DNA of 44,735 nucleotides from a phage. The translations under genes and the position numbers were made by a program. Below, in pieces: positions 1-44,735 of the stretch (the stretch's first letter is position 1; each line of letters opens with the position of its first letter). The notes beneath the pieces are model-generated. The model was not told the origin of the DNA, did no database searches, and saw only the letters and a program-made list of their open reading frames with translations. The stretch lies in the sequence record PZ166175.1; one strand, written 5' to 3'.

Positions 1-1343
1 GTCAGCTTGTCGTTATCCGGCACGTATGGCTCTATCGGTGTTCGCATAACCCTACCTGCCGATTGAATCAGGCCGATACCAGACGCTTTCTTCTCGATGA
101 TGATCTTTCGGAGGATGCCATCTGACTGACTGGTTGCCCTTGATTTCTTCTCGAAGTCCAGCAGTTCTGATTCCAACTCTGGTGCCTCCCACTTACCTCT
201 GCGCTGGTCTATCAGGTAAATCTTAGCATCCTTATAGCCCCACAACTGAAGTACAGAGAAGTCACTATAACTCTTTGTAGTCATCGCAGTATCGCAAGTT
301 ATGAATCTGTAATCGTACTTGGCTGGGGGTCTGAATGTGTCGCTAATTCGCTGGAACCAATCCACGTTAATCAGATTTCCACCGAGCGCTACTGGTTCCT
401 GCTGATATTGACTAAGGAAAGTATATGGGTCACTATCCCACATTGCGACCAGGTCATGCACAGATTCCTTTCCTGGGAAGTAGCTGTAATACCTCACACC
501 ATCGCGCTCAACATATTCGCTTGATAGCACGTCATCAATGAATTGCTTTTTAATCCAGTCAGGTAGTGTGTCGATGTAATCTTCAGTAACCAGCGCTGGT
601 ATCTTCACCAAATCAAAATCAATACCCATACCTCCGCTAAGCATGAACCATGTTGAGTCATTGACGTGAAGTCGCTGCTGAATCTGTATAATTGGAGTTG
701 CCTTACCCTTTACAGAGCTTGCGCGGCGCGAACGAATGGTATTGCCAAGCAGTGTGTGACTCTTAGCTCTGTATACAGATGAAAACATCTCGTCTGGCTT
801 GTCGAAGTCATCCAGCATTACCGCGCCACTGTATGTGTCGGTAATATATCCACCACGCGTACCGGTAATTCTACCTCCTTTTGATGCTGATATGGACTCG
901 AATCTAACCTTTCCGTTGTCGTCAACTATCTGAATCTCGTCATCCTTATTTGTCCCGAACTTGCAAGGCCAAAGCTCCTGAAACTCCCTTGATGATATCA
1001 AATCACGAACTCTCTTAGAGTTGCGTTTCACGTTTGAGTCGGCGAAAGAGATATTAAGGTTGCGAACCTTCTTCAGCTTCAGCATCGAGTAGACGGGGAA
1101 GTGGATTGATGTGATTTCTGTTTTTCCGCTGCCCGGCGCTATGTTAATTATGGTATCTTTGCGCTCTCCGGCGATAATCTCGTCAATGATTCTGCACAAG
1201 TACTTGTGATGCCAGTTGGGGATGTATCGCTCGCCCTGGGTGATTTGGAACCAGCACCGAAGAAAACCCTCGAAGCTGTGCTCCGATATAGCCTTAACCG
1301 CCATCTTTTCCTGAATGGTCATTTCTTCCCATACTAAAGACAT
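1..1343 (-). CDS. terminase large subunit, N-terminal about 447 codons; ORF runs off the window start and continues in frame at 44513..44735
   Basis: ATG at 1341-1343 preceded by AAGAGGG RBS; Walker A-like IAPGSGKT; no stop codon before position 1; frame matches the ORF at the window end. Confidence 0.85.
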   Translation of the reverse strand, partial: MSLVWEEMTIQEKMAVKAISEHSFEGFLRCWFQITQGERYIPNWHHKYLCRIIDEIIAGERKDTIINIAPGSGKTEITSIHFPVYSMLKLKKVRNLNISFADSNVKRNSKRVRDLISSREFQELWPCKFGTNKDDEIQIVDDNGKVRFESISASKGGRITGTRGGYITDTYSGAVMLDDFDKPDEMFSSVYRAKSHTLLGNTIRSRRASSVKGKATPIIQIQQRLHVNDSTWFMLSGGMGIDFDLVKIPALVTEDYIDTLPDWIKKQFIDDVLSSEYVERDGVRYYSYFPGKESVHDLVAMWDSDPYTFLSQYQQEPVALGGNLINVDWFQRISDTFRPPAKYDYRFITCDTAMTTKSYSDFSVLQLWGYKDAKIYLIDQRRGKWEAPELESELLDFEKKSRATSQSDGILRKIIIEKKASGIGLIQSAGRVMRTPIEPYVPDNDKL

Positions 1344-6616: not shown

Positions 6617-6691
6617 CGAATAGCACTTTTTGCTAAAGACATTAGGGTCTGGTGGGGCTATAGTTAACTCACCAACAGCGAGGGTGTAGAT
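6617..6691 (+). promoter_or_regulatory. early promoter cassette (plus orientation)
   Basis: AATAGCACTTTTTGCTAAAG, 23 nt, TATAGT, then RBS and ATG at 6692. Confidence 0.5.
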
Positions 6692-7305: not shown

Positions 7306-7466
7306 TGCTATTACCATCTGAGATAAATTATTTCGATCTTGAGGTTATAAGCGCCTATAGCGGAAAGGGCTGGCCTTGCGGAGACTGGTTCCGCGAAGAC
7401 CTGCTTGAGAGCCATGAAATTATGATCAAGGCGATAGAGAAGGCACGAAATAGCACTAATTGCTAA
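7302..7466 (+). CDS. hypothetical small protein (54 aa)
   Basis: hand translation MMLLPSEINYFDLEV...; ATGA overlap with upstream gene; 3' end runs into the next cassette palindrome. Confidence 0.35.
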   Translation: MMLLPSEINYFDLEVISAYSGKGWPCGDWFREDLLESHEIMIKAIEKARNSTNC

Positions 7467-7519
7467 AGCCCTTCGGGGATTTTCCTGTATATTCATCTCA
7501 TCGAAACGGAGGATTTGAA
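7445..7519 (+). promoter_or_regulatory. early promoter cassette
   Basis: AAATAGCACTAATTGCTAAAG, 22 nt, TATATT, CATCTCATCGAAAC, GGAGG, ATG. Confidence 0.5.
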
Positions 7520-7624: not shown

Positions 7625-7858
7625 GTTATAGATATAGAACTTGGCTATGGTCCTGATTATTATCTTATTGAAGAATTTGACGTTAAGGTAGAGATTTAAT
7701 GTTCGATAACTTTAATGACGCAATGGATGAGGCTTTTTACCGAGCCTCACTTGATGAAAGATTTACGGTTTAGTTCAGAAGGTTGACAAGATTGTTGTGC
7801 GAATCGTGCGCAAATCAGTACCTAACAAATTCATGTGGACAACGAAGAGAGTAAAAAA

Positions 7859-8278
7859 ATGACCATTAATTACTGCAAGATAACTGCCGGATGGAACAAA
7901 ACCACAAATAACTGGGTTAGCAACGAAAACGTACTCTACAAAGCTCGCGTTAAAAAGGTTCACCAATGGGTTGATGGTGTAGTTAAGGAGGTGGAATTTA
8001 AGCAAATCAAGAAAGATGGAAAATGGATTAACCTTGAAGAGCGCGGAAGATACATTAAGACTAAAACTCTTTACGTTACCCGAGTTAACCATAACTCGTC
8101 AGTTAAGAAGTCATTTAAGCTCGGAAAGAGATACCAGGTATCTATGCATGCTGGGATTGGACAAAATGCTGGGTATATTTATGACGAAGATGGTAATGCC
8201 TGGCAGCTTTACCGAAGTGAGGATGTTGGGTTCTTTACTCTCTGTGGCACGTACTATTTTGAGGCTCAATATCTGTAA
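7859..8278 (+). CDS. hypothetical protein
   Basis: ORF track 7835..8278; start moved to the ATG after GAGAGTAAAAAA. Confidence 0.5.
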   Translation: MTINYCKITAGWNKTTNNWVSNENVLYKARVKKVHQWVDGVVKEVEFKQIKKDGKWINLEERGRYIKTKTLYVTRVNHNSSVKKSFKLGKRYQVSMHAGIGQNAGYIYDEDGNAWQLYRSEDVGFFTLCGTYYFEAQYL

Positions 8279-14689: not shown

Positions 14690-14757
14690 TGTTTCGTTTC
14701 GATGGAGTAACTATATCGCATCCATGCGAAATCCCTTTAGCAATTCGTGCTATTTTG
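14690..14757 (-). promoter_or_regulatory. early promoter cassette
   Basis: minus sense: AAATAGCACGAATTGCTAAAG, 22 nt, TATAGT, TACTCCATCGAAAC. Confidence 0.5.
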
Positions 14758-22584: not shown

Positions 22585-22665
22585 TGCTAACCTCGCTCGT
22601 TGTTGATTGGGTAATCATACCACAACTTTTAATTTCGTCTTTAGCAATTCGTGCTATTTATATTT
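22585..22665 (-). promoter_or_regulatory. early promoter cassette
   Basis: minus sense: AAATAGCACGAATTGCTAAAG, 22 nt, TATGAT, TACCCAATC. Confidence 0.5.
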
Positions 22666-23626: not shown

Positions 23627-23822
23627 CTATTCCTTAACCTTAACTACTTTAACAGATTTCATATCTTCCTCAGTAAAGTACCCGGTCAGCACATCGAGGG
23701 CTTCCTCTTTAGTATCGAATCTATCAGCTTCATTCTTATCTGTTGTGTAACCGGCCGGGCCACCAAAATAGCAATCGCCGAACAGTGCGTTGTTTTTCTC
23801 TTTGATAATGTAGTAGGTCATT
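23627..23822 (-). CDS. hypothetical protein
   Basis: ORF track 23627..23956; start moved to MTYYIIKEK... downstream of TATATAGTTAACCCATCGAAAT. Confidence 0.4.
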
Positions 23823-23824
23823 TC

Positions 23825-23900
23825 CGTGTCTCTCTGGTTGTTTGATTTCGATGGGTTAACTATATATTCGGCGAAGTAGCCAGTCCAATTGGTTTTGCCA
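23825..23900 (-). promoter_or_regulatory. degenerate early promoter cassette
   Basis: minus sense: TTGGCAAAACCAATTGG, spacer, TATATAGTTAACCCATCGAAA; upstream palindrome differs from consensus. Confidence 0.35.
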
Positions 23901-24143
23901 ATCGTTGACTTAAGTTTACGTGTTAATACCTTGTAATTCCGCGTAGGCATTGCCACTAGTTACGTTTCTTGGCATCTCAGCCCAGCTATAGCTCAATGTA
24001 ACCATCGTGTATATCGTGTATACCGTTTCTTGCAGAGGTGCATTGGTATAGCTGTCACGCAATACTGTATAAATCAACATGATATTGAAATTATAACCGG
24101 AACACTCTATAGAAGTAGTTACATGATATACACAGTAATATAT

Positions 24144-24158
24144 ATAATAATAATAATA
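24144..24158. repeat. (ATA)5 microsatellite inside the block paralogous to 6267..6337
   Basis: ataataataataata read directly. Confidence 0.8.
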
Positions 24159-24283
24159 AGAGTAAAAGGTTGATATATATAGATATTTTAATGTAACCAA
24201 TGCGTAACTAGGCGTAACAGGGCGTATATCATTTTTCGCGGATTAGATTGCATACATCGAGTTACATCGGTTACGTGTATGCA

Positions 24284-30744: not shown

Positions 30745-30815
30745 TCCTCTTGTTTCGATATGGTAACTATAACCCATCTTTCAAAATCGCCTTTAGCAAT
30801 TTGTGCTATTTAGCT
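30745..30815 (-). promoter_or_regulatory. early promoter cassette inside the late tail operon
   Basis: minus sense: AAATAGCACAAATTGCTAAAG, 22 nt, TATAGT, TACCATATCGAAAC, AGAGGAG, ATG. Confidence 0.5.
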
Positions 30816-34976: not shown

Positions 34977-35008
34977 ATAGAAAACCCGCCGAAGCGGGTT
35001 ATTTTTTT
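34977..35008. terminator. bidirectional terminator-like hairpin upstream of tape measure gene
   Basis: AACCCGC-cgaa-GCGGGTT with T-runs on both sides. Confidence 0.5.
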
Positions 35009-35310
35009 CTCAGGTTATCCATCATCTCAAGAGCCTTAGCTTCAAGGATGCGTAAATCGCTGAGTACCAATTCTTCTTCAGAAACATTATACACTCTAAA
35101 GAGGAAATTTAGCACGTTGTAATCTAGCCCTGTAGCTCCGTTAGCTCCGACTCTCCACTGCGTAGCCATTGAACAATAAATGTCCCACGCCTTCATCATG
35201 TTGTCGTCGAAGTGCAAAACCTCAGGCTCTTCGTCTTCGTAATCAGAGCGGCGCATCCCAATAGCTTCCAGTTCGGCATCTGTTGGCTCTGACTGGTACT
35301 GTAGATACAC
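34999..35310 (-). CDS. tail assembly chaperone, gpT-like frameshift extension
   Basis: ORF in the -1 frame relative to 35319..35633; slippery heptamer A_AAA_AAC at the junction. Confidence 0.6.
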   Translation of the reverse strand: MYLQYQSEPTDAELEAIGMRRSDYEDEEPEVLHFDDNMMKAWDIYCSMATQWRVGANGATGLDYNVLNFLFRVYNVSEEELVLSDLRILEAKALEMMDNLRKK

Positions 35311-35318
35311 CGCCCTCT

Positions 35319-35633
35319 TTAGTTTTTTACCCGCTGGCCTGCCAGTGCCTGCATATAAGCGGTAGTAAGTGCAACGGTTGAGGCTGGGAACAGGTCGGAG
35401 AACTCATTAACGTTATCCTCGTTGTATTCTTCTTCCAGATCCCAATCAGAAGCAATTGCCATGATAAGTTCTTTGGTGCTCAAATCTTCCTTGCTAAGCA
35501 ATTCCTGCAACTCAGATGTTTTCTTATGCTTGACTGTAAAGATAACCTCTACATCCTGGTCGTTAGCCAGCTTGAATTTTACCGGAAGCTTGAAGTCTGG
35601 CAGCGCCGCCAGTGAAAGTTTGAACTTTGCCAT
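35319..35633 (-). CDS. tail assembly chaperone (gpG-like)
   Basis: 104-aa acidic ORF between major tail and tape measure genes; ends ...GTA AAA AAC TAA. Confidence 0.6.
   Translation of the reverse strand: MAKFKLSLAALPDFKLPVKFKLANDQDVEVIFTVKHKKTSELQELLSKEDLSTKELIMAIASDWDLEEEYNEDNVNEFSDLFPASTVALTTAYMQALAGQRVKN
35322..35328 (-). other. programmed -1 ribosomal frameshift site A_AAA_AAC
   Basis: heptamer in zero-frame codons AAA AAC one codon before the gpG-like stop; -1 frame reads into 34999..35310. Confidence 0.6.
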
Positions 35634-35682
35634 CTTAGTTAATCCTCTTATTGTTTGTGAGTATGTATTCTATTACTTAGTT

Positions 35683-35920
35683 CTTTCTTTTGCAATCTTA
35701 GCGGCTGAGTCCTTACAAACCTCCTTGCCATATTTCATGATTTGGTCAACTTTACCACCCGCAAGTTCCTGGCATGCTCGCTCAGCCTTAGAAAATTCAA
35801 CAGTATATTTGTTTGCCTTGCTATTTGCACCAGCCTCGCCAGTTGGGTTAACAATCTGAACTACTGCATAAAAAGCAACCAGAACTGCAGCAAGCTTGAT
35901 AATTTTTTAACGTTATTCAT
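35683..35920 (-). pseudogene. small secreted-protein gene interrupted by a frameshift at an A6 run
   Basis: ATG after RBS AAGGAA gives MNNVKK then stops after 19 codons; the -1 frame continues for about 70 aa; one extra A restores an 85-aa signal-peptide ORF. Confidence 0.4.
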
Positions 35921-35924
35921 TTCT

Positions 35925-36000
35925 TAATTCCTTCATTTCGTTTCGATGAGTTAACTATACAGGAAGATTGCATTAACGCTTTAGCAAAAAGTGCCATGCA
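35925..36000 (-). promoter_or_regulatory. early promoter cassette inside the late operon
   Basis: minus sense: CACTTTTTGCTAAAG, 22 nt, TATAGT, TAACTCATCGAAAC. Confidence 0.45.
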
Positions 36001-36001
36001 A

Positions 36002-36024
36002 TAAAAAACCCTCCGAAGAGGGTT
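36002..36024 (-). terminator. rho-independent terminator downstream of major tail protein gene
   Basis: AACCCTC-cgaa-GAGGGTT followed by TTTTTTAT in minus sense. Confidence 0.6.
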
Positions 36025-36030
36025 TGTGCT

Positions 36031-36687
36031 TTAAACTTCAGCTGCCACAGAGGACAGACGACCACGAATGGATACAGCTATGGATACCGTTTCGATTTCG
36101 TTAACACCAATGGTAGGGGTGTCGTTGAAAGCGATAGTGCCGGACTGCAGACGCATTTCCTGAGCGCGAGGTACAAACAGACGAATAGCAACAACCTGGC
36201 CAGACTCATCGTAGTTACGCAGGACAGGATAAACCGGGTTAGTGTACTCATGAGCGAAGGTGAAGGTGTTCGTTACCGCAGATTTATAAGTAGGAATCTG
36301 CTGCTCACGGTCATCAGAAAGACACTGGAAGTTAACGAACTGCTGTTCGCCGCCATCAGTGGAAACGTCCTGAACGCACGGAACTTCGAACCATGAAGTA
36401 ATCTTAACAACCTCACCAGTTAAGCCAGCAGGGAACTTAGTGGTGTTGGAGGTATCAATACCTTCAACTGTTACCGAAGTGCCAGAAACTTCAGTTACTC
36501 TCACCTGCTTGTCGCTAAGTAGGGTTGAGCTGGAGGCGGTAAACAGAAGGTAGTCACCCTTAGCCAGGCCGGATCCGTCAGATACAGTTAAAACAGGGGT
36601 AGCTGCGTTAGAGATTGCAGTTACGTTAATTGCAGTTCCGCGAGATCCTTCTACGAAGACCTGCGTGCCATTTGATAAATGAGCCAT
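36031..36687 (-). CDS. major tail protein (putative)
   Basis: 218-aa ORF upstream of the chaperone pair with a strong terminator after it. Confidence 0.5.
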   Translation of the reverse strand: MAHLSNGTQVFVEGSRGTAINVTAISNAATPVLTVSDGSGLAKGDYLLFTASSSTLLSDKQVRVTEVSGTSVTVEGIDTSNTTKFPAGLTGEVVKITSWFEVPCVQDVSTDGGEQQFVNFQCLSDDREQQIPTYKSAVTNTFTFAHEYTNPVYPVLRNYDESGQVVAIRLFVPRAQEMRLQSGTIAFNDTPTIGVNEIETVSIAVSIRGRLSSVAAEV

Positions 36688-44444: not shown

Positions 44445-44520
44445 TTTTTTCTCCTCTCGTTTGTGTAAGTTAACTATAAGCCATCCGTGTCTTTGGTGTT
44501 TAGCAATTCGTGCTATTTAA
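44445..44520 (-). promoter_or_regulatory. early promoter cassette overlapping the TerL stop codon
   Basis: minus sense: AAATAGCACGAATTGCTAAAC, 22 nt, TATAGT, TAACTTACACAAACGAGAGGAG, ATG. Confidence 0.5.
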
Positions 44521-44735
44521 TTCCAGCTATGCGCATTAATCGCGCTTTGGGATCATCCGCGATGTTAAGCACCAGGTTGATTGCCATTGTCATGGTATCA
44601 ATTTGGTCGTCGTGCTTATGCGAGTCATCCGCCGTAAAAGCTGCAATCTCAGTAAGCAATCCGTTTAACCACGGTGCGGACTCAGGAAGAACTACGTTGC
44701 CAGCTTTAATCTGTGGCAATGCGCTCATTACGCGA
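44513..44735 (-). CDS. terminase large subunit, C-terminal continuation of the ORF that starts at 1343
   Basis: reading frame from position 1 joins across the window junction (codon uses positions 2, 1 and 44735); ends ...HKHDDQIDTMTMAINL... Confidence 0.75.
   Translation of the reverse strand, partial: RVMSALPQIKAGNVVLPESAPWLNGLLTEIAAFTADDSHKHDDQIDTMTMAINLVLNIADDPKARLMRIAGIK

Follow-up and report, generated by a model that had tools for sequence, protein, structure and literature searches.

A one-base frameshift in a conserved 82-aa gene beside the tail assembly chaperone genes of a T1-like coliphage

Results

One missing base splits a conserved small gene over two reading frames

The small gene between the major tail protein gene and the tail assembly chaperone genes of a T1-like Escherichia coli phage is a disrupted allele of the conserved 82-aa family phrog_22925, and we hold with high confidence that this allele is a recent one-off and not a designed recoding site. 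In the 44,735-nt stretch of DNA analyzed here (PZ166175.1; hereafter the window), the frame initiated at the ATG ends after 19 codons, and a −1 frame that opens just past a TAA at 35909..35907 continues beyond it. The translation of this second frame, (K)IIKLAAVLVAFYAVVQIVNPTGEAG...KIAKERTK, contributes ~76 residues more, comprising the rest of a signal-peptide-like segment and then a helical part with two cysteines. The frame is broken at a run of six adenines, and one base put into the run restores an 82-aa ORF. The parts of the broken gene are:

35861..35920, minus strand: initiated frame, ATG (35920..35918) plus 18 codons, translated as MNNVKKLSSLLQFWLLFMQ and ending at TAG (35863..35861)
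35673..35906, minus strand: −1 frame, the remaining 76-77 codons of the ancestral 82-aa protein, ending at TAA (35675..35673)
35903..35908, minus strand: A6 run (T6 on the plus strand), site of the frame break

Alignment of the window to three genomes revealed an uncompensated 1-nt deletion at 35904. Where relatives read GTT AAA AAC ATY, the window reads GTT AAA AA- ATT, so that the C of codon 6 is missing and AAAAACATT has become AAAAAATT. Because all 26 relatives read A5-C-A at this position, the C was lost from codon 6, and the A6 run is, as judged from these alignments, the product of that deletion rather than a prior homopolymer altered in length. A preliminary description of this locus had recognized the early stop of the initiated frame, the open −1 frame continuing for ~70 residues, and the repair of the gene by a single extra base at the A6 run, all of which stand. 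It had also placed the run at 35904..35909, one position off, had expected a restored protein of 85 aa instead of 82, and had taken the missing base for an A of the homopolymer. The comparison of homopolymer length in relatives that it proposed corrects this last point, since A5-C-A in 26/26 of those read implies a missing C and no change in run length.

The allele is unique among relatives

All 26 of the fetched relatives that carry the gene read GTT AAA AAC ATY ATC at the site, and they encode 82 aa, except for one copy cut at the edge of its locus and one with a nonsense codon. A 101-nt query for the site matches 79 INPHARED records, and among the matches listed (~70) all that cover it span one base more than the window, typically 102 vs. 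101 nt. The extra base is also present in seven of seven IMG/VR contigs. The exact deletion allele was absent from the viral, metagenome, and genome contigs scanned, and neither an A6 nor an A7 allele was found in any collection, relaxed pattern scans yielding only unrelated AT-rich chance matches. Similarly, the split two-frame architecture occurs in none of the 26 sequenced relatives and in none of the ~70 database records listed. An exact look-up of the window's major tail protein in other assemblies gave no match, and a look-up of the chaperone recovered many contigs, every one of which has the gene in intact form or different cargo. The preliminary description had named relatives without an ORF at this place, alongside reads confirming six bases, as speaking against its reading; for the relatives the opposite was found, as almost all have an intact 82-aa ORF.

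The gene belongs to a lineage-restricted family under purifying selection

Once its frame is repaired, the protein aligns end to end with phrog_22925 (E=2e-53, residues 1-82 against profile positions 1-82), and the uninterrupted 82-codon ORF that characterizes the family is replaced in the window by the 19-codon frame and the −1 frame of 76-77 codons. A search of 5.8 billion proteins identified 39 clusters, nearly all of 82 aa, and when 1.84 billion representatives were searched exhaustively with a profile, nothing beyond this family came back. By these comparisons, the family is a lineage-restricted ORFan. Searches for function by homology gave no hits in Pfam, only noise in NCBIfam, none in PADLOC, and none in a PDB profile search at E values up to 10.

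The small-gene family is under purifying selection, with a pooled pN/pS of ~0.17 over 22 distinct alleles that differs little between leader and mature part. Residues N6, C50, and C69 are invariant across 25 aligned cluster representatives, and the order of major tail protein, terminator, cassette, small gene, and chaperone is kept in relatives. Against these relatives, the restored window gene has a dN/dS of 0.12-0.20. Relaxed constraint is thus not seen, and the deletion event is for this reason considered recent.

These data also bear on the reading that there is no gene here at all, with the −1 frame a chance ORF or the real feature on the plus strand, to which we give negligible probability. 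Two plus-strand ORFs do overlap the region (35422..35859, 145 aa, and 35742..35927, 61 aa), but the minus-strand frame is a full-length member of a constrained 82-aa family in conserved synteny, whereas the antisense 145-aa ORF contains one to three in-frame stops in most relatives and the antisense 61-aa ORF is frame-shifted in every relative by the extra base. The plus-strand ORFs were rejected as the real feature, as they are not conserved.

The gene follows a terminator-like hairpin and a repeated promoter-like cassette

The window, a complete and circularly permuted genome, is that of a T1-like E. coli phage (Drexlerviridae, Braunvirinae) related closely to Guelphvirus and Veterinaerplatzvirus, with only 87-93% identity to its best database relatives. 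The assembly is circularly closed and its start point arbitrary, and an end-overlap test found no terminal overlap. Both of its ends fall within the large terminase gene (1..1343 and 44516..44734, minus strand), where the junction is seamless. Two INPHARED records with other host names, MG065688.1 (“Campylobacter phage A110b”) and PP134917.1 (“Pseudomonas phage PsgS01F”), are typical E. coli Braunvirinae genomes with 90-92% identity to the window over the tail region, and their host labels probably reflect contamination or misattribution. Around the small gene, the window contains the following features:

36031..36687, minus strand: major tail protein gene (218 aa), upstream neighbor of the small gene
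36006..36025, minus strand: GC-rich intrinsic-terminator-like hairpin, AAACCCTCTTCGGAGGGTTT plus a T-run, ending the major tail protein gene
35979..35997, minus strand: palindromic, operator-like half of the cassette, ATGGCACTTTTTGCTAAAG (consensus ATAGCAC-N3-TTGCTAAAG)
35941..35959, minus strand: −10-like and leader half of the cassette, TATAGTTAACTCATCGAAA, a repeated element
35929..35933, minus strand: Shine-Dalgarno AAGGA, read from the sequence, 8 nt ahead of the ATG
35319..35633, minus strand: tail assembly chaperone gene (PF08748) with its own RBS, downstream of the small gene
35321..35327, minus strand: canonical programmed −1 frameshift site A_AAA_AAC at the end of the chaperone ORF (...GTA AAA AAC TAA)
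34999..35310, minus strand: second tail-assembly-chaperone ORF

A 992-aa tape measure gene comes after the chaperone ORFs. No terminator-like site was found on the minus strand between 35673 and the chaperone start at 35633; co-transcription of the small gene and the chaperone gene from one cassette is therefore compatible with the arrangement and would fit it.

The hairpin behind the major tail protein gene has the same sequence in relatives, is annotated as a terminator in EC3a, and forms the upstream edge of an accessory slot. Past this terminator, a cassette copy directly upstream of the small gene constitutes its own putative promoter. Across the window, 18 sites match the palindrome ATAGCAC-N3-TTGCTAAAG vs. 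0.55 expected (for example, 6620..6638 and 7450..7468 on the plus strand, and 14735..14753, 22639..22657, 30791..30809, and 35979..35997 on the minus strand), while TATAGTTAACTCATCGAAA is present in seven copies vs. 0.01 expected, numbers that mark the cassette as real and repeated and support the earlier view of a cassette-driven small gene.

Alignment of the cassette copies indicates a fixed spacing of 22 nt from the palindrome to TATAGT. In six of the seven full copies, the palindrome precedes TATAGTTAnCnCATCGAAA and a gene start by exactly 22 nt, and an RBS and ATG occur 10-25 nt beyond each copy. With this spacing, TTGCTA lies too far from TATAGT for a sigma-70 −35 element and the palindrome is centered near −42, from which we infer a position like that of a class-II activator site. 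Because the spacing is unfit for a sigma-70 −35 element and the center falls near −42, the cassette copies suggest a genome-wide class of activator- or regulator-dependent phage promoters. No description of the cassette in Braunvirinae was found in a literature search at the level of titles and abstracts.

One further cassette copy (23846..23864) lies at the window locus equivalent to EC3a gp44 (23627..24200, minus strand). EC3a gp44 is annotated as a 143-aa CDS (L005 26617..27048) that extends upstream across the promoter cassette, and the equivalent gene in the window probably begins at an ATG ~24 nt past the cassette (~23822) and encodes ~65 aa. A candidate third frameshift near 23925, relative to EC3a gp44, was rejected as an annotation artefact, since the EC3a CDS is over-extended upstream.

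The break lacks the features of a programmed slippage site

Sequencing error, pseudogene, and slippage-dependent expression, the explanations offered in the preliminary description, form the correct set of options. In the slippage reading, the break is real and a useful full-length protein is produced by ribosomal −1 slippage at A_AAA or U_UUU or by transcriptional slippage at A6/T6, from an allele that is programmed or acts as a “dimmer”. We consider this improbable, although the shift needed is indeed −1, two minimal Z_ZZN sites (A_AAA at codon 6 and U_UUU at codon 17) lie within a 15-codon stretch open in both frames, and a slip at either would retain the basic-plus-hydrophobic N-terminus. 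Z_ZZN is the minimal −1 site, and the idea of a “savior indel” offset by a low rate of compensatory frameshifting has precedent (PMC5009743). For single-base deletions in E. coli test genes, unprogrammed suppression was reported at 1-10% in aggregate (PMC10861913).

The sequence around the run points the other way. The zero frame reads GUU_AAA_AAA_UUA and contains no in-frame X_XXY_YYZ, the heptamer of tandem −1 slippage, since U_AAA_AAA has a P-site mismatch and only the minimal A_AAA tetranucleotide is found at the run. The 70 nt downstream fold with an MFE of −16.5 kcal/mol vs. a shuffle mean of −19.3 (z = +0.85), and 163 of 200 shuffles fold at least as well. A run of 6 nt is too short for appreciable RNA-polymerase slippage. 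Slippage or phase-variable tracts have runs of ~8-9 nt or more and vary in length, whereas this run has 6 nt and relatives read A5-C-A. No relative has the split architecture, and N6 does not vary among the 25 aligned cluster representatives.

How the conservation of a programmed site looks can be seen in the same operon, where the chaperone A_AAA_AAC site, 580 nt downstream of the focal run, joins 35319..35633 to 34999..35310 and is identical in OzMSK, the one relative read there, in which it is annotated as a joined CDS. With its heptamer out of frame, no supporting structure, and no split relative, the small gene does not bear out slippage as a designed feature. That the deletion is real and the allele a “dimmer” rather than a knock-out, with unprogrammed −1 slips supplying a few percent of the normal dose, is very improbable. 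If this were true, a slip would rebuild the 82-aa protein with its leader, making the allele a phage analogue of the “savior indel” that provides a low-dose exported envelope factor, possibly for superinfection exclusion or receptor masking.

A real mutation is favored, with a consensus error nearly as likely

A real mutation is favored over a base-calling deletion in the consensus, with error considered nearly as likely. We give about an even chance to a recent real mutation in a dispensable gene that leaves the allele effectively null. Somewhat short of even is the probability we give to a sequencing or assembly artefact, in which the phage has an intact 82-aa gene (with AAAAACATT or an A7) and the consensus dropped a base by the A5 run. 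An artefact would account for an allele that is unique among ~100 relatives and all collections searched, and for the dN/dS of the restored gene, a value expected also for a very recent mutation. Deletion-only errors near short runs are typical of some sequencing platforms.

All EC3a proteins and three whole-genome or partial alignments were surveyed against the window for frameshifts. By this survey, the window has only two uncompensated coding frameshifts (35904 and 7756); each affects a small gene, and the large structural and replication genes are free of them. Breaks confined to small genes support real mutation, as selection predicts them and random error does not. At the second site (7699..7860, plus strand), the window reads GAT G-A AAG vs. 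GAT GGA/GGG AAG in relatives, a unique 1-nt deletion that cuts a 53-aa hypothetical gene (EC3a gp21 homologue) to 24 codons. At that locus, the window is shorter by at least one base than every INPHARED match listed (30 of 71 records).

As unique 1-nt deletions beside short runs, the two breaks together are in line with consensus errors from deletion-biased long reads, but neither is a length change of a long homopolymer: a C singlet was lost at 35904, and GG became G at 7756. The lost C stands outside the run, and undercalling of a homopolymer would account for it only together with a C-to-A change. Moreover, the window has 29 other A6/T6 runs and seven longer A/T runs, yet no further uncompensated frame break was detected where its coding sequence aligns to relatives. 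The ~36 kb of large conserved genes are free of breaks, both being confined to small accessory genes, a distribution for which a rough chance estimate is (5 kb / 36 kb)^2, or ~0.02.

Real knock-outs of this gene also occur, which argues further against an artefact. An independent nonsense allele is found in a 42.7-kb Logan contig (SRR33512635; L018 3001..3141), where E47 is changed from GAG to TAG and 46 aa are left. Given the frameshift here, this nonsense allele, and the other cargo found in the slot of other relatives, the gene looks dispensable, and these alleles make it seem dispensable for propagation.

In most relatives, the slot holds the intact 82-aa gene behind the phage's own putative promoter cassette. 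If the mutation is real, loss of the C in the AAC of codon 6 would fuse A5 and A1 into A6 and place the rest of the gene in the −1 frame, such that translation from the ATG would yield only a 19-aa peptide. Through −1 slips that are not programmed, at A_AAA (codon 6) or U_UUU (codon 17), no more than a few percent of ribosomes could return to the frame. The term “null” may accordingly be too strong for the allele, given unprogrammed suppression of up to 1-10%.

The slot carries exchangeable cargo

The cargo of the slot differs from phage to phage, while the terminator and cassette ahead of it stay the same. Four types were recovered:

Most relatives: 82-aa gene
L021 2695..2880 (metagenomic contig): acidic, unrelated 61-aa ORF
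L040 941..1327 (AugustePiccard): 128-aa lipoprotein with an LLAGC lipobox
L041 940..1206 (ECH1, ACG-M12): diverged 88-aa homologue with 54% identity

Three of the four are signal-peptide or lipoprotein genes, and thus envelope-targeted as far as their sequences indicate. This variation identifies the Braunvirinae slot between the major tail gene and the chaperone genes as a putative exchange point. Of the hallmarks of a moron, the small gene has its own putative promoter and sits in a slot with patchy, exchangeable cargo, but no terminator-like site lies downstream of it before the chaperone start.

The 82-aa protein is a putative exported product

The signal-peptide-like N-terminus noted in the preliminary description was recovered on closer inspection, and the features of a signal peptidase I substrate are all present. 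A basic n-region (residues 1-9, with K5 and K9) is followed by a hydrophobic core of 15 residues (10-24; Kyte-Doolittle up to 2.66), a helix breaker (N25-P26-T-G), and small residues at −3 and −1, A30-x-A32 before N33 (AGA or ADA, then NS), of which A32 is nearly invariant. The remaining ~50 residues are lysine-rich and predicted to be helical, and they contain the two invariant cysteines. From these features, we infer that the 82-aa protein would be exported by Sec and cleaved by signal peptidase I to a small periplasmic product of ~50 aa, which probably acts on the envelope of the infected cell. An AlphaFold2 model contains three helices at low confidence (pLDDT 62.8), and a Foldseek search of this model against BFVD returned nothing at E <= 0.001. 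Our best guess for the role of the protein, to which we give less than even odds, is that of an exclusion or receptor-masking factor.

Discussion

For annotators, 35673..35920 on the minus strand is a frameshifted copy of a conserved 82-aa gene; neither a 19-aa ORF, nor a pair of ORFs, nor a recoding event should be annotated there. The slot, rather than the frameshift, is the more interesting result.

The closest counterparts of the window gene are the phrog_22925 members of Guelphvirus and Veterinaerplatzvirus, including EC3a gp56 (YP_009789324.1), OzMSK_029, and BEK6 QGH76861.1, each annotated as an 82-aa “hypothetical protein”. They share with it the slot, the terminator, and the promoter cassette, as well as 92-95% protein identity after frame repair. 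In the window copy, unlike in these relatives, codon 6 is one base short and the gene is divided between two frames.

Two known types of frameshift offer a comparison. The chaperone frameshift of this operon, which is of the lambda G/GT type, resembles the focal site in its A6 run, its −1 shift, and its place in the same transcription unit, but it has an in-frame heptamer, whereas the focal run is out of frame, unique, and arisen by deletion. The “savior indel” at a G-run of herpesvirus thymidine kinase (PMC5009743) likewise involves one base gained or lost at a short run of a viral gene, and rare slippage could in the same way give a trace product from the focal gene. A selective benefit of lowered expression is not in evidence at the focal allele.

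Known exclusion factors offer a second comparison, in which the likeness of the small gene to HK97 gp15 and to Cor and Llp is one of position and protein type only. The HK97 gp15 moron encodes a small membrane protein, is inserted by the tail chaperone genes, and excludes superinfecting phage (PMC3594210). Like it, the small gene has its own putative promoter in the tail-assembly block of a siphophage beside the chaperone genes, encodes an N-terminal hydrophobic helix, and appears dispensable and variable in presence. A Pfam scan, which gave no hit at all, revealed no sequence relationship between the two. The promoter of HK97 gp15 is foreign, whereas that of the small gene is the phage's own repeated cassette, and unlike the HK97 moron the small gene is followed by no terminator-like site on its strand. 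HK97 gp15 is membrane-anchored, while the cleavable A-x-A suggests a periplasmic product for the small gene. T1-like phages are generally regarded as virulent, and a role in prophage expression is therefore unlikely for the small gene.

Cor and Llp are exported or lipoprotein exclusion factors of T1/T5-like phages. The 82-aa protein differs from them in lacking the lipobox [LVI][ASTVI][GAS]C, with no Cys before residue 50, and in finding no detectable counterpart among Pfam, NCBIfam, PADLOC, or PDB entries. It resembles them as a small, predicted envelope-targeted protein of a T1-like coliphage, and the same slot in AugustePiccard holds a lipoprotein.
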